Both the position numbers and the translations under genes were made by a program. Below the pieces are notes generated by a model. The model did not search any database and had not been told where the DNA came from. It saw nothing but the letters and a program-made list of their open reading frames with translations. From Heteronotia binoei (lineage: Eukaryota), in the NCBI RefSeq assembly GCF_032191835.1, contig NC_083230.1, positions 68,076,001 through 68,140,000 of the forward strand: a stretch of DNA of 64,000 nucleotides, in the 5' to 3' direction. Shown one piece after another: positions 23,971-38,003 of the stretch. The stretch's first letter is position 1. Each line of letters begins with the position of its first letter.

Positions 23971-24697
23971 TAAGAATGTAAGAACATAAGAGAAGCCATG
24001 TTGGATCAGGCCAATGGCCCATTCAGTCCAACACTCTGTATCACACAATGGTCAATACACACACACACACACACGCTGTGGCTAATAGCCACTGATGGAC
24101 CTCTGCTCCATATTTTTATCCAATTCCCTCTTGAAGCTGGCTATGCTTATAGGCGCCACCACCTCCTGTGGCACTGAATTCCACATGTTAATCATCTTTT
24201 GGGTGGAGAAGTACTTCCTTTTATCTGTTATAACCAGTCTCCTCAGCAATTTCATTAAATGCCCACGAATTCTTGTATTGTGAGAAAGGGAGAAAAGGAC
24301 TTCTTTCTCTACTTTCTCCATCCCATGCATACTCTTGTAAACCTCTATCATGTCACCCCGCAGTCAGCATTTCTCCAAGCTAAAGAGCCCCAAGCGTTTT
24401 AACCTTTCTTCATAGGGAAAGTGTTCCAAACCTTTAATCATTCTAGTTGCCCTTTTTTGGACTTTTTCCAATGCTATTATATCCTTTTTGAGGTGCAGTG
24501 ACCAGAATTGCACACGGTACTCCAAATGAGACCGCACCATCGATTTATACAGGGGCATTATGATACTGGCTGATTTGTTTTCAATTACCTTCCTAATAAT
24601 TTGCAGCATGGTGTTGGCCTTTTTTATTGCAATCACACACTGTCTTGCCATTTTCAGTGAGTTATCTACCATGACCCCAAGATCTCTCTCTTGGTCA
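23971..24697 (-). mobile_element. CR1 3' fragment, (GT)n short-3'UTR variant, in LUM intron 2
   Basis: ORFs 24672-24364 and 24351-24082 are CR1 ORF2 C-terminus; tail cttatgttcttacattctta. Confidence 0.92.
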
Positions 24698-24839
24698 GAG
24701 AGGCAAGTGATGCTTCAAGGCAAGTAATGTTCTGAGGTGGTTTACCACTGCCCAATGCTGGATTCGGAGGGGCAGAGGGGGCGGTAGTCCGGGGTGCCAG
24801 TGGGGGCATGCCAAATTGGGTGCCTCCCAGGGCAGAGAA

Positions 24840-26130
24840 AAGCAGAGAGATGGCAAAAGCAGCCCCGTGGCTACCCCCAATTTAAAGACCTTGCTGGCTG
24901 GTGGAATCTTTAAATGGGAGGAAGGTGCCTTTGTCACCTTCTCGCAAGTTGGGGAGGCAGCAAGGCAGCCCTGCAACTTCCTTCCCCATATAAACACCCT
25001 GCTGGGGTGTTTAAATGGGGAGGGAGAGGCAGATTGCCTGTCTTTGCTGTTGTCCTGAAGGCAGCCCCACGGCTTCCCTCCCCATTTAAACATCCTGCAG
25101 GATGTTTAAAAGGGGGAGGCAGATTGCCTGCCTTTGCCATCTCCTTGCAAGGTGGAGAGGCAGCAAAGGCAGCCCCATGGCTTCCCTTCTGATTTAAACA
25201 CCCCACTGGGGTATTTCAATTAAATTTAATTAAATGCTACCAGGGTATTTAAATGGGGAGGGGGAGACAGATCACCTGCCTCCCATTTTTTGAGGTTTTA
25301 CTATGTTGCTACTTTGTTTTTATTTTGTAATCCTAACTTTATTCTGTATGGATTTTGTACTCTTTTAATCTGTAACCTGGCCGACCCTCTATTTTATATT
25401 TTTATATATGCCAAAGAAGGTTGTCATATATGTGTAAATTTAATTAAATACCACCGGGGTATTTAAATGAGGATTTAATTAAATTTTATTAATTTAAATT
25501 TAATGAAATACCTCTGGGGTCTTTAAATGGGGAGGGAGAAGCAGATCCCCTGCCTTTGCCATCTCCCCACAAGGCAGGGAGGCAGGAAAGGCAGCCCCAC
25601 AGCTTCCCTTCCCATTTAAAAATCCTGCAGGATGTTTAAATGGGGGGGGGAGGCAGATTGCCTGCCTTTGCTGTCTCCCCACAAGACAGGGAGGTGGGAA
25701 AGGCAGCCCTGCGGCTTCCCTCCCCGTTTAAACACCCTGCTAGCGTGTTTAAATGGGGAGGGAGAGGCATATCGCCTACCTTTGCCATCTCCCCACAAGG
25801 CGGGGAGGCGGGAAAGGCAGCCCCAGGGCTTCCTTCCCTATTTAAATACCCTGCAGGGTTTTTAAATGGGGGGGGGGGCAGATTTTCTGCCTTTGCCATT
25901 TCCCTGCAAGGAGGAGAGGTGGCAAAGGCAGCCTCATGGCTTCCCTCCTGATTTAAACACCAGCCAGGGTATTTTAATTAAATTTAATTAAATACTGCCA
26001 GGGTATTTAAATGTGTATGGGTATTAAATACTATTGGGGTGTTTAAATGGGAAAGGGAGGGCAGATCGCCTGTCTTTCCCATCTCACCGCAAGGCAGGGA
26101 GGCGGGAAAGGCAGCCCCATGGCTTTTCTC
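24840..26130. repeat. Diverged ~110-bp minisatellite array (8-10 units) with AT-rich palindromic spacers
   Basis: Recurring ggcagattgcctgcctttgccatctccccacaaggc...aaaggcagcccc...cccatttaaacaccctgc near 25029, 25118, 25265, 25540, 25651, 25765, 25877, 26060. Confidence 0.85.
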
Positions 26131-26474
26131 CATACAACTACCCATCTAAACTAAATTTCCATTTGAATACCTCACTAGTAGCCCATTGAGGCCTGAAAGA
26201 TATTCATAATTTTGGCTGGAGCAAATGTATATTCCTTATACCCTAACTGAGAGATTTGAATAATATATATTTAAGATGAAGGACTCATACAAATTTTTAG
26301 GTATTCTGAACTAATTTTCAAAAGCTTCCCTTGATATGCCTACAGATCATTTGCTTGAACTGGTTCTTCTAGCATTATCTCAAATTTTGCATTAAACTAA
26401 ATCCACTGCAAACTCAAGTATGTGCCCTACACTAAGCTGCAGTAAATTCAGTTTAATGCAAAATTTTCTGTAGT

Positions 26475-27165: not shown

Positions 27166-28193
27166 CTAATTCTTTGCAAGGCAGAGGACAGAAGGCAGAA
27201 CAAAAAAAGGTAGATGAATGAGAGAGAAAAGATGGAGATGCTGGGGGATGGAAGGAGGGAAAGCTAAAGATTAGAGGGAAGCAGATACGGATTGTTGGGG
27301 CAAGAGAGGGAGGGAGGGAGGAAGAGAGAGAAGGAAGCAGGGAAAGCGGAGAGTCTATGAAGACTGGCTGGGGAGAGGAAATAGAGTGGGGATGGTGAAC
27401 AGGTGTGCCCCTGTGAGTCCTTGCAGGCCTTCCACTTGTTCAAAACTAATCCAGTAATATATCATTGTCCTAGAATGGGAATAATATGTATATATTATGT
27501 TGGAAGATGATGGAAACACTAATATGAGAATTTGGCTCCCACCCAGCCAAGTGGCCGCTAAGGCTGGGAGCCATCCATTGCCTCCCCGGAAGGATAAGAG
27601 GCAGTGGACTCTTCCTGGCTGGGCGGGGGTGAGGTTCGCCTTATAAGGCCGAACCTGCCCCCGGTGGCACAGTTTTGAAGCCGCGTTTGGTGGAGCCGAT
27701 CAGCGCACGGTGGCTAAGTGCTCTGGCGGCTTTTGGTGCGGTCCTTGGCAGCTGGGAAGTGTTCTCTCGCAACCTATGAGGGTGACATCTTCTGCAGTGT
27801 GGAGCGTGCGGCGGTTAGCAGCTGGGAGCCTCGGCGTCAGGTGAAGTGGGCGTCATTGTGCAGACATATCTTCGTGCTGCGGAGTCGGTGGTGGCTTTTG
27901 GCGGGATGAAGGCGGCTGGCTGAAGAAGAGCACCGGGGCAGCTAAAAGGGTCTTTGAGGGTCCCCCCACATCTTTCTGTTAGAAGGGGCCATCAGCGTGT
28001 TGTGGATGGCCTCCAGGGGGGTGGCTGTTTTGGGTGTCAGTGGCAAAGGCCATTCAGGGGTCGGTTTCGGCTTGCTGAGTCCCGTTGAGATAGGGAGCTT
28101 GGCCAGCTTCGCTATTGGGCTAGGCCTTGGGGAGTCCTTGGTTGAGTGGTGTGGGGTTGTTTGGAGTCCTCCAGAGAGCCTTTTTAAGAGAGC

Positions 28194-29679
28194 ATGGGGC
28201 CTAAAAAAGGGCAAGGCCCATCCAAGGGGAAACAGCTGGCCAAAAGGCCTCTTAAAAGGCCGGCTCCTGCCCAGCCCCCGGCTGATGAGGGGGATGAGGT
28301 GGTGACGCGGCAGGCCATCCTGGATCACCTGGCCATTTTGGAGGAGGCAAGAGGGTTGGCAGGCCCGTCACAACGATTTGCTGGGCTTAAGGGTTCTGGT
28401 AGGGCTGCCACCATTTCTTTTCAGAGAGAGGTGCTCGCACGGCTTTCTGCCTTACAGGGTGCCGACAAAGGCGTGAATAGTCTAAGTGATGCAGTGCCGA
28501 ATGATGAGGAACAGCGGGAGGAGCCTGAAGTGGTTGCAGTGGTGCCTAACAATGTGGAAGGTAAGACACCGGCTCGGCAACAAGGGGTGATGTGGCCATG
28601 GGGTCCCAAATGTTGCCTCAGTTTCTGGGCCGGCTGTTGTGTCCCCTGCGTCTGGGTCGCCCCATTGTGGCGGGGGTCCACTCATAAGTCAGCAAGGGGC
28701 CTCTGGGGCGATGCCTCATCAGTTGGGTAGCCCGCTTCCATTCCAGGTCTGGCAGCCTTGGAGCTCGGCCACAGCGGTAGGAGGTCAGGTTGGTAGCACG
28801 GGGACAGCGGGGTTTTCGGCGGCAGGAGGCATGTTGCCTTGGAGTCAGCAGCAAGCGGCTTCTTCGCCTCCAGCCTGGTCTTCGCAACAGTGGGGTGGTT
28901 GGGGATTTCCATCCCATCCCCCAGTCCCTTATAGTATGGTGGCATTTCATGCTCTACCTTTTGGTGATTCTGCCATGCTGCTAGGCAATCACCTTAAGGT
29001 GGCAACCAAGGAGAAGATCTTAAAAGGTGAATACGTGGACGTGTTCAGCCTGTTATATAGAGAGCTGGAAAAGAAATCCAAGGATGAGCTAGACGAAAAG
29101 GATAAGGAGAAGTTGAAGCGGCAGAAGGTAGATAGGTCTTGGTCGAATTGGCTGCTGGGATTTCTTATATATGCGGGGGTCATTGCCAGGGCCCAGCCTT
29201 GGAGGGCAGCCCCGCTATTCCAGTATTGCGATATAATTTACCACGCGTATAACGTTTTTCGGGTGGGGCGTGGCTGCAGTACGATGAAGAATTCCATATG
29301 CGAGCGGTGGTTAATCCTGGTCTCCCATGGGACCAGATCAATCAGCAGCTCTGGTTGCAGTTTATGGCACCCGCGAAGCCAAATACTGGGGATAGATCCG
29401 ACAGTGGTCATCTTGTACAGAAGACTGCTCATTCTGCTGGCACCCACACAGTTGTGGGGCAGTCGGTTCAGCCACGGCTGCTTTGCTGGGAGTTCACCTC
29501 CCAAGGCACATGTGCCAGAAAGGCTTGCAGGTACAAACATGAGTGTCTGCTGTGTGGAGGGCTGCATGCTTTCATGGCCTGCAATAGGTCCAAACCAAAA
29601 AGAACCAACAGACGGCCGGGGCGGGGCAAGTCACCCTCCTGGAAAAGGGGCCCAGCCCCATACAGCTGAGGGTTCTTAA
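28194..29679 (+). pseudogene. YR-retrotransposon gag-like ORF1 (frameshifted)
   Basis: KEKILKGEYVDVFSLL, W.NWLLGFLIYAGVI, W..YDEEF and a C-terminal Cys/His finger CWEFTSQGTC...CRYKHECLLCGGLH. Confidence 0.85.
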
Positions 29680-29686
29680 GGAGTTA

Positions 29687-31295
29687 TTGCAGTATTATCC
29701 TTGTGCCGAGGAGAGAAGGTATCTGTGGGAAGGGTTTTCCCTGGGGTTCAGAATTCCTTACCATGGTCCCCGGACCCCGTTTTCTTGTTCTAATTTACGG
29801 TCTGTTCGTGGTTTAGAGCACATAGTTAGGGCTAAAATTAAGGAGTATGCGGAGGGGCGAGTGTTGGGCCCTTTTGCGGTTCCTCCGGTGCCCAATTTGC
29901 AGGTTTCCCCCTTGGGTGTGGTACCTAAGAAAGCTGCTGGTGAGTTTTGTTTAATTCACCATTTGTCTTACCCGAGGGGGCGGTCTGTGAATGACACCAT
30001 TCCCCCGGAATTATGTTCAGTTAAATACACATCTTTTGACAGGGCGGTGCGGATTGTGCGTCATTGTTGTGTGCCGAGCTGGCGAAATGTGACATTAAGT
30101 TGGCTTTTCGCCTTCTCCCCGTGCACCCAGACGATTTTGAACTGTTAGGCTTTATGTTCGAAGGCAGTTTTTATTTAGATAGAGCGCTGCCAATGGGGTG
30201 TTCTTTATCTTGCACTGCGTTAGAGCGTTTTAGTACTTTTTTAGAATGGGCGCTTCGGTTTAGGACAGGGGTGCGTGATACGGCGCATTACCTGGATGAC
30301 TTTATTTTTTGTGGGCCCTGTGGATTCTGGGCAATGCTCTTGGTTGTTGATGGAGGAGCTAGGTGTTCCCTTAGCTAGGGAAAAGACCGAGGGCCCAGTT
30401 ACAGTTCTGACCCTTTTGGGTATCGAGCTTGATACTGTGCATCAGCTATCAAGACTGCCGTGCAACAAGTTGGGCTGTGCTAGTTAAGCGTAAGGTCACC
30501 CTTTTAGAGTTGCAGCAACTGGTGGGCCACCTGAACTTTGCCTGCAAGGTGGTGGCCCCCGGTCATGCATTTCTTAGGCAGTTTTGTGATGGCATGGTTG
30601 CCTTGCATGCACCGCATCATTATACCCGGGTTACAGAGGGGATGCACAGTGACCTGGAGGTCTGGGAGTCGTTTTTGAGGTATTTCAACAGCTTCTCTTT
30701 CTGGCGGGAAGTCATGCAGTTGAATACGGACCTTCAGATTGTCTCGGATGCTGCCGGTTCTACTGGCTTTGGTGTGTACTTTCGGGGGCATTGGTGCACC
30801 GATTGTTGGCCGAGTGAGTGGTTGGACTCTGAATTATGTCATAACTTGACTTTTTTGGAATTTGTTCCCATTGTGGTCGCTATTTTTCTATGGGGACATT
30901 CTCTGGCCAACCACACGGTTCACTTCTGGTGTGACAACATGGCAGTTGTCCATGTTGTCAACCACCTGACCTCCTGGTCCAAGCCAGTTATGAGGATGGT
31001 TCGGGCATTTACTTTGCGTTGCCTTAAGTTAAACGTTTTGTTTTTGGCAAAGCATGTTCTAGGCATTTATAATGGAGTGGTGGATGCCCTGTCTTGCCAA
31101 CAGATGGTGCAATTTCGTCTGCTAGCTCCAGCGGCCGACCCGTTACCCGCTCACATCCCCGTGGAGTTGTGGCAGATTGGAGGGATGAAGTTAGCTGGAC
31201 AATCCACCTCGCCATATCACCTAGCACGAAAAGGTCATATGACCTGGCAGCTAGTCAGTTTACTGTTTTTCAGGAAGGGGCGGGGCTACCTGTGA
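29687..31295 (+). pseudogene. Reverse transcriptase / RNase H (frameshifted)
   Basis: SPLGVVPKK, LIHHLSYP, AKCDIKLAFRLLPV, LPMGCSLS, HYLDDF; RNase H DAAGSTGFG, LEFVPI, WCDNMAVV, DALS. Confidence 0.92.
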
Positions 31296-32052
31296 CATGG
31301 CCGGCACCAGTCGAGCATCTGCTGCAGTTTTGTGTTTGGCAGAATGAGAGAGGTTTCTCGGTGAAATCCATCAAAGGATAGCTGGCTGCCTTGTCCTTCC
31401 TAAGTAAAGCCCGGGGGTATCAGGAGGTGACTAAGGATTTTCGTATGCTAAAGATGTTAGAGGGATGGTCTCAGGAGGTGGGGCAACGGGTTGATCGTAG
31501 GCAGCCAATTCCCCAGCAATCCTACAAGGTTTGTATGCCACTTGGGCTTTGGTTTGTGCCATAGCCTTCGATGAGGCACTTTTTCATGCAGCCGCCTTGA
31601 TGGCTTTTTTGGGGGCCTTGCGGGTGTCCGAGTTGGTGGTACTTTCCCGTAAGGATATTTCTGTTAGGGCTCTCCAGGTTGGGGATGTTAAATTTGTTGA
31701 TGGTCAGTTGGTGCTATGTGTCCGACGGTCTAAGACGGATCAGATGCAGCAGGGTTGCACGGTCACTTTTGGACCTTGCTTGGAGAGGGATCTGTGTCCG
31801 GTTGCTGCCCTCGTGCATTATGTGGACTTGCGAGGGTCAGCAGATGGCCCTTTGTTTCGCCATCATGATAGCACCTCTTTGACCAAATATCAATTTTGGA
31901 CGGTTACTAGCGTCAAATTTGGCACCCATTCTTTCAGGATCGGAGCCGCGTCCACAGCCGCAGCTTTGGGTTACGGGGGTGAGGCCATTCATCGTGTGGG
32001 ACGATGGAGATCTGGGGCTTATCAGGCCTACATTTGGCCTTTGGGGTCGTAA
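31094..32052 (+). pseudogene. Tyrosine recombinase (frameshifted)
   Basis: ALRVSELV, RSKTDQ, LCPV, THSFRIGAA, GRWRSGAYQAY: the R-K-HxxR-W-Y catalytic set. Confidence 0.92.
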
Positions 32053-32151
32053 GAAGGTCTTCCTGTGGCAACCTTGCCCTCGGCGCTGTTCAGTGTTCTG
32101 TTTTGTTTTAAAAAAGAGAGAGAGAGAATTCTAATGGTTGTTCTGTTTTAG

Positions 32152-32751
32152 GTGCTGTGGCTGGCGCTGAAAGGAGGCGGATCCTCATATGTGGCCACAG
32201 TATCGTTTTCTGGGTGGCACATCAGGTTCGACGGACTGCAGTCGGCTCACAGTTGGACCTGAGTGAGCGGGCCGTGATTGAGTGGCGGGGTCGCTGGGGC
32301 ATGAGGTGGTCAGGGCTTCTTTCGCTTCTCTTTAAGGAAAGAAGGGCCCGCCACTGCATATGTTGGTGATCCACCTGGGGGAGAATGATTTGATCCTAGT
32401 AAAGGGTAAGGCCCTTTCACTTCAGGCCCGGGATGACATCTCTTTGATCAAGAGAAGGTGGCCGGGCGTCCTTATCCTGTGGTCGGCCATGCTGCCGCGC
32501 AGAAATGGCGGGCTGCATGGGATCCAGCAGGTTTGGAGAGAGCCCGGAGGAAGGCCAATAGGGCCTTGCAACTTGCCCTTGAGGGAGGGCTTGGAGTCTA
32601 TGTGCCGCATCCATCCACTAAGGCTGGTTTTCAGGATTTGTACAGGGCAGATGGGGTCCATCTTTCATTAAAGGGGAATGAGGCCTTTTTGGCCGATATA
32701 TGGCAAGGTCTAGAACATGTTCTAGGCGTTGGTGTTGGTACAGTTGCCTAA
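32152..32751 (+). pseudogene. SGNH/GDSL hydrolase ORF (two frameshifts)
   Basis: Block I ILICGHS, block III VIHLGENDL, block V DGVHLS, spread over ORFs 32157, 32360 and 32458; preceded by branch point and acceptor ctaat...ttctgttttag. Confidence 0.85.
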
Positions 32752-34899
32752 GCTGAGGCTTGGCTCTGTTTGTGGCCGTTTTCTGTTGGGAACATGTTTT
32801 GTAGGGGATTGGTGAGCTCCTGTGGCACTGCACCATTGCGCTGAGTGGCCTCCTGGGGCACAAGGTTGGCTCCAGGGAGCTTAGGGATCCCGTCACACGG
32901 AGAGTTGTCCACATCCCAGGCTGTATGGCTTGGGTGAGGGTGGAACTCAGGTGAAGGGGATCTTGTGGTCTGGCCGGCCGGATCTAAGCCGTTTGGTTGG
33001 CTCACACCCGGGGCTTTGGGGCTCGCCCTGTTTTCAGGTTAAGGAGGTGGTCTGGTATTGACCCCTGGCTTTTCCTGTCCCCATCGTTTGGCCCTTGCCG
33101 TTAAGTTAATAAAATGGCCCTTTAATCCATATCTTTGTCTGTCTTGTTATTCCAACTGGGGAGGCAATACACATTTTTCTTTCCTGCTTTTTGAAGTTTA
33201 GAACATCCCTAATGATTGTTGATATATTAGATCTCCCTATTATAGGATAATGGCAATCACCTATTAAAGTGGCATTGCTAAGCCAATGTTGGATGTGTAT
33301 ACATGAAAGCATTCACAACATAAAATGTGGTTACAGTTTATCTCTATTTTTATATGTCAACTACTCACTATGGAAACTGGTCAAGTTCCTAAATTTGGTT
33401 AATGTGCTCTGGGTAACACCTAAGCTGTCACTGCACAAAATGAGCATGTCAGTAACTGGAACTAGGAAAACTAATTGGCTGAAGGTTGTCCCTGGCTTTG
33501 ATGCATTTGCTTTATGGTCTGGCCAAACAAAATATTACTATCAAACTGGTGCTCATGCCATACATTAATAGCAGTATAGCATTTTATAGATTTGCGTCAT
33601 TCTGTTTGTCCAATAAATAAATATAATAAAAAAATAAAATAGATAAAGCTGAGTCTCCTTCCCCTTGTCTATTGGAGAACAGCTATGTTATTGTGCAGGT
33701 TCAGGTCCCCACTCTGTAATGAGGCTTGTTTTGGCTAGTCACTCTCTCTCTCTCAATCTAACCTACCTCACAGGTTTGTTGTGAGAATAGAACAGGGAAG
33801 GAAATATATGCTGCCTTAAGATCCTTGGAAGAAATGTACTCAACATAGTGATACAATAGATATGAATATATGGCAAGTAGGCAAACTGTCATTCCTGGTG
33901 CATTATTTCTCTGCTGCCTTTCTGGGTCCAGGAATTCTACATATTTTACTTCTGTTCTGTTGCTTACTTGTTACTGGGACCTATACCTCTTTCTGTAACT
34001 CATTCTGTGTGACCATTGACTTGGCACTTGTAGTTGTCTTCACCTATCCTTTGATTTTAGTAATCATCATCTCAGTCGAATACTTTCTAGAAAGCCCATG
34101 GATGTAGCAGGCTAATGTTCTCCTTGAAACATTTTCTTCTGCTGGAATAAGCTTCAGGGACAGAACTGGTCCTAACATTATTTCTTTATAAGTAAAACAT
34201 GATTCCACCCCCATCCCACTTTCTTCATGGCTGGAATGGGACTGAATGATTTAACAATATCATTTAAAGTATTTTCCTGGTATCTCCATTGGGTTGTGAT
34301 AGGCAGATAGTTTTTATAACTTTTTTTATAAAACAATAATAAAGTGTACTAAACAGACAGATGAAAGGAATACAAATCAATTTATCTCTAGCCTACAATT
34401 AGAATCTACAAAGAGTTGTGAAGGCTTTAGTAATATGTTAGCTAGGTTGTCAGACTTCTGAAAAGTAGAAATAGAGATAAGGAACAACTGTAAAACAACC
34501 TCTATGCAATGTAACCAACTATATTGACATCAATTTATATCACAAAGAATTCATTCATAGGTTTCATTGAAGGATTCTAATAGGGTGCAACTCTTAGTTC
34601 AGTTATAGTCCAATAAAGGTGCAATGAAAAGAAGAGTTCACCAATGCTTAAAATGTTCTGGGCCTGCAATTAGTCCATTCTTGATGTGTAAATTTCCAGT
34701 ATAGACTTTTCCAATTATTTCAACTCCATTGAACCTGGAAGACGCGGGTTCAAATATGCCATGAAACTCACTGGGTGACCTTCTCCCTTCTCAGCCTAAA
34801 CAATCTCAAAATATTGTTGTGAGGATAAAATGGAGATCAGGTGAATAGTGTAAACCACATAGGGTTGCCTTTGGGGAGAGAAGTGGGATATAAATATCT

Positions 34900-35189: not shown

Positions 35190-35829
35190 TAAAAATAATT
35201 ATTAATGACAAGGGAGCAACAGTGCATCCCCTGTTCACTGAGAGTGGTCATCAAGGCATTAAAAAAGAGAGAGTGTAAAGGAGTGGGTACACTAGGCATA
35301 AGAGCTGTATTTGATCAGATGAAACATGGATAACAGTGAGGTGTCAAAAATCTCCATCATCCTCCCTCACCAGCCTATTGAATGATGGCAGAGAATGGGG
35401 GCCTGGACTGGCTGGTCTCCCCCTACAGGAGGCGACCTGGCCTCATTTTTTAACATTATCTAAAATATTATAGAACAGGACAAGTTGAGCATACCACTTT
35501 GTATGTCAGATGCATGTGTGTTTGCACTTCACTAAAATATTTCACAATTTCAAACCAGGTGCTTTATGTTTCTGAACTAAACCGATTAAAGACAGGAAAG
35601 GAGACTGAGGTTTGTTATTTACAAGGCTGTTGTGGGGCTTCACTATATCTCCTCATCTATATGAGGAGATCAGCATCCTGAAAAAAATGTTGTGAGTTGT
35701 TATTTCCTGCAGTATTGTTAAGCAGTCAAGAAGATAATTCTGTAGACTGAACAACAGGTTATTTCCTAGGTTGTTATGGTAATTTTATCATCTCTCCCTT
35801 TTCCTCAAAATATGGCAAATATTACTCAC

Positions 35830-36730
35830 TGTTAATCTGATTGACTTGGAGGTAGTAATTTTCAAGGTGTTCATTAACTGTTGGAATGCTCTTCAGTTGA
35901 TTGTAGGAGAGATCCAGCTCAACAAGGGTGGAAATATTGAAAGCATTGCCTGGTATTCCAGAATCTGTCAACTTATTGTGAGAGAGACGTAAAAACTGCA
36001 GTGTTTTAAAACCTTGGAAATATTCATCAGGAATGTTGGTAATCTCATTGTTGTCAAAATATAGCATCAGTATATTAGGGGGTAGTCCCAGAGGCAATTT
36101 AGAAAGTTTATTGTAACTGAGATCAAGATACAAAAGTGAATCCAAGCCTTTAAAAACCCCAGAAAGTGAATCTTCTGTCAGTTGGTTGTGCTGTAGGTGA
36201 ACAACAGTTAGATTCACTAATCCTTCTAATGTATTGGGGTTGATTTTTGAAATCTTGTTGTGAGTGAGTTGTAGGTCATCCATGGTATTGGGAAGTGGCC
36301 CAACAACCTCAGTTAAGTTGTTGTAGTTAATATGCAGTTTTTTCAAATTCTTTAATTTGGCGAACACTTTACCTTTAATTTTTGAATTTTCCAAATGGTT
36401 ATTATCTAGGATTAGCCACTCCAGGTCTGTTACATTATTAAAAGCATTATCTTCGATTCCTTCAATCATATTATTTCGCACATATAGGTATTTAATTCCA
36501 GAAGGAATGATTGGAAGACTTTTCAGTTTAAGGTTATCACAATACATGGCTGATGGATAAGTTACAGGGCAATTACATTCTGGTGCACAGAGTGCTGTTG
36601 ATGGCCCATACATGGGATGAGCATAACCATAATCTGGGTCTGGAGGATAATATCCAGCATGATCATAATCATATTGACAGAAGATGCCAGTGATCAAGAA
36701 AAGGAAGAAAGGAAGAGAATTCAGATGCAT
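35830..36730 (-). CDS. LUM: Lumican main coding exon
   Basis: MHLNSLPFFLFL...CAPECNCPVTYPSAMYCDNLKLKSLPIIPSGIKYLYVRNN...FKTLQFLRLSHN. Acceptor ccttcaacag|A (exon starts 36750), donor AACA|gtgagt at 35830/35829. Confidence 0.97.
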
Positions 36731-38003
36731 CTTTGCAGTGAGTGTTCTTTCTGTTGAAGGAAATTAAACAAATACGATTAGATGATTGGGCAACACTCAG
36801 AAGTACATCTGAAGGGTTATTATTTCACATTAAATTTAAAAATCTCAGTTCATAACAACATATCACTATGCTTAAACTTGTAAGCTATTATGACACAGGT
36901 ATCCATCAGGTAGCAATACTTCCATCAATGACTCTTTAGTAATTCATGCAATTAACAGTTGACTGAGACATGACAATGACCACTGAGTATTGATAAACAC
37001 AGTTTGATAACAGCTTAGCATGAATAGATATACCATAAAGTTATAATAAATATTTCCAAATTGGAGTATGGTACATGAATCAAGAATCAAAGGATAGTGG
37101 ACTATTACCAAATAATAGACTGTTGGTATTGGAATGAAGACACTTTGGTTCAGGTAAGACTCATTGGGTTACTTTTGGACAGCCATTATTATTTAGTTTA
37201 ATATACTCATCCATGTGAGAATAAAGTGGTGAGGATAAAGTGGTATTTCTCTACTTTAGTTTATCCTTACAAGGACAATTATACTACCCTGAGCTCTTTA
37301 GTAAAAGGGTGGAATACAATATTCATATACTATTGGTTTCAAGAAGTTTTTCACACATCATATTTCCTTTAGAGATACTAGAAGGTTGCCAAGCCTATAG
37401 CTCTGAGCTTGGAAATATGACCTCTTGTAATTTGTAATGCACATCTTCAATATGAAGCTCTTGATTCTTCTCTAACATGCAGATTATGGACATTTTCCTG
37501 CAATTTTAAGAGAAAACAGAGGGGGGTGTTTGTGCATGCTCACACAACACACCTCTGTTGGAGCTAATACCTGCATTTCTCTTTCCCTGTTTCTTAGACA
37601 GGGAGAAAAAACAGTTCACCACTTGGCCAAAAACCAAGCACCAGCTGGGTCATATGCAGAAGAGGTAGTATTACTGCTTTTCTCTCTTCCTCCTCCCTCA
37701 GTGGGCATGTGTCTGACCAATCTGCAGGTCAAACTGAAAGGCCAACAGCATCAGCAACAAAAACATCCTCCTCAAGTACTTCCATAGAGTCTGAGGAATC
37801 TGAGCTGCCATGATGGGAACAAGGCAAAGGAGGTGACATGGTGCTGTGAAGATGGTTGACTTTCTGTGTGGGGAAAATCAACCCTCTTCACAGTAAGGAA
37901 TGAGTGAATGGGCAAGCATGTAGTGGGGAGGGGGGGGTAAACAGAATGGCAAGAAAAAGGTGTGCTGGCACTGGCAGAACATTGAGGAGAATGGTGGGTG
38001 GGT

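Follow-up and report, generated by a model that had tools for sequence, protein, structure and literature searches.

Some Ngaro retrotransposons, which encode a tyrosine recombinase (YR), are known to carry a hydrolase open reading frame (ORF), called one 'with no proven function' in PMC9210276 and known also from PMC6681497. In Xenopus DIRS-53_XT and DIRS-54_XT, split direct repeats accompany gag, reverse transcriptase/RNase H (RT/RH) and YR, followed by an SGNH hydrolase ORF (PMC9210276), and programmed frameshifting has been suggested for YR (Poulter and Butler 2015, quoted in PMC13003380). Retroviruses and errantiviruses (gypsy) reach a 3' ORF through a spliced env mRNA from which the central gag/pol region is removed (PMC4276936); plant Ty1/Copia elements set their protein output by conserved splicing that yields a subgenomic GAG RNA (PMC5580714); and the long interspersed element (LINE) ZfL2-1 encodes an esterase-type ORF1 protein (ORF1p), made of a basic N-terminal motif, a helical segment, a poorly conserved linker and an SGNH esterase, which is active and binds liposomes (PMC3905857). 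Here we analyse 64,000 nt of the gecko Heteronotia binoei (NC_083230.1, positions 68,076,001 to 68,140,000; hereafter the window, in whose numbering positions are given), of which 27529–33168 is a decayed Ngaro-type YR retrotransposon. Its layout resembles that of the Xenopus elements; in the gecko element SGNH and, probably, YR are exons joined to the Gag N-terminus (Gag-N) from one donor, whereas splicing and introns go unmentioned in PMC9210276. A search of the Ngaro/DIRS literature by title, abstract opening and passages found no description of such a splice, which older papers, Repbase notes or supplements may mention, and passages of PMC4021074, PMC9341512 and PMC8547959 add nothing on a Ngaro gag-to-SGNH splice.

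Results

A phase-1 donor in gag and a phase-1 acceptor before SGNH

A first-pass annotation of this sequence had proposed that the SGNH ORF is expressed by env-like splicing from gag, and the sites that it named, together with their phases, are borne out by the sequence. The donor GAAG/GTAAGA lies at 28560/28561, 367 nt after the gag ATG at 28194 (122 codons plus 1 nt, phase 1); the acceptor lies at 32151/32152, where base 32152 is the second codon base of the SGNH frame (phase 1), and is preceded by the 21-mer with branch point, pyrimidine tract and AG at 32131–32151. Scored with an approximate matrix, the donor comes first among the element's 400 GT sites, and the acceptor ranks second of 392 AG sites by a crude ad hoc score. 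An ATG within the branch motif of the window copy is out of frame and terminates at the acceptor TAG. The gag frame is open through the donor in four copies (L033, L038, L041 and L056), and the intron is therefore alternative.

The conservation of sites and phase across the family, which the annotation had named as a check, is seen both copy by copy and in diverged young families. Among close copies, defined as the 39 non-self matches among 40 scored of 2047 candidates, the acceptor AG, the YTRAY branch motif and, in the 25 of 39 in which it could be mapped, the donor are kept in most copies (Table 1); the tract is 95% pyrimidine and donor position +6 alternates between A and T. The commonest-letter share is 0.90–0.99 in the splice signal and 0.52 in the spacer upstream (acceptor-anchored, unaligned), so that the spacer is not conserved. 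The young families were sampled as 40 loci picked for varied frame lengths from 150 scored of 11,528 candidates. Here an AG lies 41 nt before the Gly of the GHS motif in all 39 loci in which that motif was found, with YTRAY in 36 of the 39, and at the homologous gag position GTAAG or GTAGG occurs in 36 of the 38 loci with a gag start, while 35 of the 38 are in phase 1. Exon 1 measures 367, 400 and 424 nt in three young subfamilies, all in phase 1. The donor is top-ranked among 175–267 GT sites in 30/38 young loci; in 7 of the 38, whose frame was broken, the best site within range was taken as the donor.

Intron-less genomic copies and spliced gene models

Four genomic copies (L176, L220, L276 and L277), obtained by protein and DNA searches of the genome, have exon 1 abutting SGNH. 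Relatives of L176 carry GT at the join base in 25 of 28 cases and AG at the other end, relatives of L276 carry GTAAGC and CAG at its join in 9/9, and the join of L277 fits its relative L291 likewise. The A1...B1-A2-B2 ends present in three of the copies (L176, L220 and L276) are those that the element's own pathway should produce, and RT action in trans has been reported for DIRS-1 (PMC7192593). In a tree of 26 exon-2 rows the four copies need four origins, at least three of which are forced by strong branches.

The parent type of L276, 99% identical to it, is a young non-autonomous Ngaro subfamily without RT, RH and YR (L267–L274, e.g. G000:C5:118767800-118772530; 8 of 9 loci fetched), which keeps an open gag frame of 427–516 codons, both splice sites (intron 1318–1329 nt) and an open SGNH; this retention suggests that these parts help in cis. 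Also considered as intron-less copies, and rejected, were some long open frames ahead of SGNH: L130 (447 aa) is an internal deletion and L131–L137 are chance open spacers.

The same join is found in annotated proteins. With a natural open SGNH frame as query, 12 proteins were retrieved; the complete Gag N-terminus stands at the start of four of them, and BLASTP of the window exon 1 to the two RefSeq fusions tested gave E 3e-16 and 5e-12. A profile search (best 150 of 2425; 30 read, 10 named) added fusions from Anolis, Elgaria, Hemicordylus, Heteronotia and Pogona, which with Eublepharis makes six lizard genera with RefSeq Gag-N–SGNH models. One of these, P0045, maps at 100% to L177, with aa 1–126 in gag, aa 127–277 in SGNH and a 3522-nt GT-AG intron between. 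A word-indexed search with exon 1 alone against longer proteins had 0 matches among 1377 candidates and missed even known fusions.

Taken with the conserved sites, these data indicate that the window lineage very probably used the 28560→32152 splice while it was active. Several observations weigh against this reading. The window copy itself is dead: gag, RT/RH, YR and SGNH each span at least two frames by tblastn, the first three being frameshifted or stopped like SGNH, which lies in three pieces (32154–32342, 32345–32503 and 32506–32724). The annotated catalytic GHS and DGVH motifs are thus both present in different frames, and the annotated fusion of a ~122-aa Gag N-terminus to the hydrolase cannot be made in full by this copy. 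The intron-less SGNH copies belong to sister families, and pattern searches found none of the window's own lineage: four matches of a first search included no element, and a second one gave 156, of which the 100 listed were judged by eye and the two candidates fetched had mutated acceptors. The RefSeq fusions are gene models, which may or may not rest on RNA reads. Phase 1 is kept in 16 of the 24 close copies with a mapped ATG, the remainder having indels, and all copy counts reflect about five lineages whose members share ancestry.

A second acceptor before YR

The annotated splice is supported and at the same time incomplete, in that the donor also serves a second acceptor. A CAG at 31103/31104, in phase 1 to the YR frame, was found at the homologous site in nearly all loci in which the motif was found (76 of 93; Table 1). 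Two genomic copies, L339 and L340, join the end of Gag exon 1, at the place to which the L177-lineage donor aligns, to the YR acceptor base, and L339 runs on through YR, SGNH and B1-A2-B2 without the rest of gag and RT. Further, a search with the N-terminus of a Bufo (toad) model gave 13 proteins; among the eight read, one first exon is joined to SGNH in some RefSeq models and to the complete YR in P0221 and P0227. We consider it very likely that one phase-1 gag donor works with two phase-1 acceptors: since both joins are seen in intron-less sister-family copies, a single transcript likely codes for Gag when unspliced and for Gag-N–YR and Gag-N–SGNH when spliced.

That YR is made mainly by this second splice is probable, and in this it competes with the published frameshift suggestion. 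The alternative that only the SGNH splice is real, YR being translated by programmed frameshifting or starting at a Met of its own while its acceptor is minor, has in its favour the overlap of YR with the end of RH, the in-frame Met 21 codons downstream of the acceptor in 28 of 34 long YR frames, the weak branch signal (YTRAY in only 13 of 76 loci) and an acceptor CAG that doubles as a Gln codon inside RNase H, where 427 of 586 other Gln codons are CAG too. The joins in L339 and L340 are in addition placed by alignments of 67–70%, no close unspliced parent of either having been retrieved, and the Bufo first exon has no match to lizard Gag and is not shown to be gag. Against this stand the two genomic joins at the donor-homologous position, the Bufo models with the same join and, for an own start, the lack of the Met in 6 of the 34 long frames; we therefore regard a non-spliced YR as unlikely and favour the second splice.

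The pattern search for Gag-N/YR joins gave 5 matches, against 15 for a reversed control; apart from L339 and L340, they comprise two unspliced copies whose acceptors are altered and one join to unrelated sequence. In L341:3842 the 3' half of an element starts exactly at the YR acceptor, next to sequence unrelated to it, which may be a foreign exon that was spliced in ahead of retroposition. Two Bufo RefSeq models, P0220 and P0224, are three-part, with a short stretch of the YR exon between the first exon and SGNH, which implies a second donor early in the YR exon.

Probable translation of the spliced message

Splicing might occur and yet be cryptic, or serve RNA control alone, the fusion protein being functionless. 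Intron-less copies do prove splicing and not translation, and gene predictors join any in-frame exons; phase 1 is nevertheless kept while exon 1 changes by multiples of three, and the SGNH part is under purifying selection, with a median ratio of non-synonymous to synonymous substitution (dN/dS) of 0.10 (39 of 78 pairs usable, with finite dS > 0.1). In open young copies the Ser, Gly, Asn and Asp/His blocks are all present (GHS 38/38, GxxGxRW 38/38, GxND 37/38, Dx[VI]H 38/38), and the non-autonomous subfamily has lost RT and YR and kept gag, both sites and SGNH. A functionless fusion is consequently very improbable.

Still less probable is that SGNH is translated alone (from its own ATG, a non-AUG start or by re-initiation), or by read-through or frameshift from YR, with the splice-like motifs incidental. 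In many copies the frame is open through the pyrimidine tract, and the unnamed contig proteins P0008 and P0012 begin with Met near the acceptor. The first-pass annotation had noted, however, that the SGNH ORF has no good ATG, and across the family no conserved ATG precedes the catalytic Ser: just 6 of the 39 young copies have an in-frame ATG upstream of GHS, and these sit at unrelated places; in 27 of the 39 the frame is stopped less than or at 25 codons ahead of the acceptor; and the first Met downstream of the acceptor comes after the catalytic Ser. The annotation would have been overturned by an SGNH ORF continuous with YR, and this is not what is found, since in the 37 of 39 close copies measured the YR stop precedes the acceptor by 77–134 nt and occurs in all three phases. 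Conserved read-through into SGNH, or a conserved frameshift, is thereby excluded. The branch motif moreover varies among CTAAT, CTGAC, CTAAC and other forms, as a signal would, and exact intron-less copies exist.

Ordinary DNA deletion as the origin of the intron-less copies, with the RefSeq fusions as prediction artefacts, is hardly tenable. Internal deletions are common among the copies, and pattern searches favour breaks where an exon starts; but the four SGNH copies were obtained by searching with protein or DNA, their joins fall on GT and AG with only 1–2 shared bases in at least three independent events, and none of the deletions listed among close copies ends at a splice site.

The predicted fusion protein

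A structure model of the natural fusion P0001 (mean pLDDT 56.8) has helices at 35–54 and 76–94, a disordered linker and a predicted SGNH fold; the best-kept exon-1 residues of the alignment sit in the two helices. Foldseek matched this model to GDSL esterases and PAF-AH (E 2e-4 to 4e-4), and VIA-align to 4s1p gave Z 11.6 and a root-mean-square deviation of 3.5 over 165 aligned residues. The structures of ZfL2-1 and Oskar are absent among the fold matches listed, which excludes nothing, and a PDB sequence search gave nothing meaningful. Complex prediction with two copies of Gag-N residues 30–95 had a median score of 0.01. Neither a signal nor a fusion or transmembrane segment was seen in the fusion, which begins with the basic Gag N-terminus and ends in a predicted soluble SGNH fold, as judged from sequence and model with no dedicated predictor run. 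The product is thus predicted to be a Gag-tagged cytoplasmic esterase and not a membrane glycoprotein.

SGNH exons in host genes

Ngaro-type SGNH exons are also found in host genes. RefSeq proteins named 'TSG101 isoform X1/X2' (P0144 and P0201–P0214) have the UEV and Pro-rich part joined to such an exon and form one 90%-identity cluster of 18 members (15 listed) from ten squamate genera. The exon (L330, G000:C21:152569810-152570397, minus strand) has a phase-1 tandem acceptor, is 36–38% identical to Ngaro SGNH and has the catalytic His replaced by Leu in 9 of 9 checked; it looks like an old domesticated exon. A literature search on TSG101 and SGNH in squamates found no paper. Two further loci, L331 and L332 (G000:C21:191992013-191992677, minus strand), are a contiguous 85–87% match to TSG101 aa 1–220 with a stop, a probable processed pseudogene. 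Ngaro-type SGNH occurs as well in DUSP12 and SPRYD4 isoforms, in gecko proteins with 4–6 SGNH domains and at the C-terminus of fish proteins (P0034, P0185, P0027, P0028, P0031, P0135 and P0125).

Layout of the window copy

The ends of the window copy match A1 and B1 of related copies; like many relatives it is without A2-B2. Over the span that was fetched, 10 of the 39 close copies show complete split direct repeats A1...B1-A2-B2. Its ORFs follow the order gag, RT/RH, YR, with RVT_1 above cutoff and Phage_integrase (E 1.6e-4) below cutoff in relative L143 and the HSFRIGAA motif in the sequence, and an SGNH ORF after YR places it in the hydrolase-bearing Ngaro subgroup. In tblastn with an intact relative, gag matched 28194–29676, RT/RH 29458–31190, YR 31079–32043 and SGNH 32154–32724; Pfam on the broken window frames gave a weak RVT_1 match only. 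GC skew over 27529–33168 is positive, at 0.15–0.27.

Table 1. Parts of the Ngaro-type element in the window and of its two proposed splices
Feature	Positions	Strand	Remarks
A1 terminal repeat of the Ngaro element	27529..27690	+	Matches A1 and A2 of full-length copies
First coding exon (Gag-N, 122 codons + 1 nt), open in the window copy	28194..28560	+	Basic at its start, followed by two predicted helices and an acidic linker
Donor common to both splices (5' splice site, phase 1)	28558..28566	+	GT 24/25, GTAAG 23/25 close copies
gag ORF, frameshifted, reads through the donor	28194..29679	+	Intact relatives have ~500 aa
Intron (3.6 kb) of the Gag-N/SGNH message, with RT/RH, YR and the remainder of gag	28561..32151	+	Homologous intron absent to the base in L176, L220, L276, L277
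RT/RNase H ORF, broken	29458..31295	+	RVT_1 E 3e-10 in relative L143
YR acceptor (second 3' splice site), CAG/, in phase 1 with the YR frame, inside RNase H codons	31085..31103	+	CAG in 74/76 loci; YR of L339 and L340 starts here
Tyrosine recombinase exon, broken	31104..32052	+	Phage_integrase E 1.6e-4 in L143
Non-coding spacer, variable, containing a poly-A/AG run	32053..32130	+	YR-stop-to-acceptor distance 77–134 nt, any phase
Branch point, pyrimidine tract, AG; phase-1 SGNH acceptor	32131..32151	+	AG 38/39, YTRAY 35/39 close copies
SGNH esterase exon, ~199 codons, two frameshifts in the window copy	32152..32751	+	
B1 repeat, AATAAA at 33108	32773..33168	+	A2-B2 absent in the window copy

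Elsewhere in the window, RT fragments that we take to be CR1-like lie at 24082–24714 (minus strand) and 24962–26170, followed by ~114-nt repeats, direct and inverted. At 35822–36763 (minus strand) there is a leucine-rich-repeat exon of 313 codons with a signal-like start, presumably akin to lumican.

Discussion

The analyses presented here point to a retrotransposon in which enzymes encoded downstream are appended by splicing to a piece of Gag. Within the proposed mechanism, the unspliced RNA would give Gag and serve also as template, and splicing of the same transcript would give Gag-N–YR and Gag-N–SGNH; the spliced RNAs would retain the terminal repeats, which would explain their occasional reverse transcription and integration in trans. 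For this RNA strategy spliced env RNA (PMC4276936) and Copia GAG splicing (PMC5580714) may be taken, by analogy, as precedents. The comparison to env made in the first-pass annotation holds for the RNA layout, as judged from DNA copies and gene models, and fails for the protein: the Ngaro fusion keeps 122–141 aa of Gag, has an SGNH fold instead of a fusion glycoprotein, is without a signal or membrane segment in its sequence, uses two acceptors on one donor, and its spliced RNA has been copied into the genome. Copia splicing produces a Gag-only RNA, whereas Ngaro splicing appends enzymes to a Gag piece.

Compared by layout, the Gag-N–SGNH fusion would be a convergence on the basic-helix-esterase arrangement of LINE ORF1p; in ZfL2-1 that arrangement is one ORF1 of a non-LTR element (PMC3905857), and here it is assembled by splicing, in a YR element that has split direct repeats. 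We lean slightly towards the view that both enzymes would be carried into the Gag ribonucleoprotein particle by the common 122-aa Gag piece, which has a basic start and two predicted amphipathic helices. A lipid role of SGNH is plausible by analogy, and we suggest only tentatively that the esterase would act on lipids or membranes in the particle, as proposed for LINE ORF1p esterases. More speculative, and in our view doubtful as a whole, is a general programme in which one donor with several acceptors tags every downstream enzyme with Gag-N; the Gag-tagged esterase would then be a particle-borne membrane-remodelling factor that does part of env's job without being a glycoprotein, moving particles across membranes or between germ-line cells, and its portable phase-1 exon would have been captured by host genes, including the squamate-wide TSG101–SGNH isoform of the ESCRT machinery.

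Finally, considering what these findings mean for Ngaro elements, one gag donor would explain the expression of both start-poor ORFs, SGNH and YR. The proteins to be studied are thereby defined as a Gag-N–esterase of ~320–345 aa and a Gag-N–YR, with exact junctions that can be sought in RNA, and the convergence makes the proposed role of lipids in retrotransposition testable in a second class of elements. The strong phase-1 acceptor may, in addition, offer a route by which host genes capture the esterase exon.

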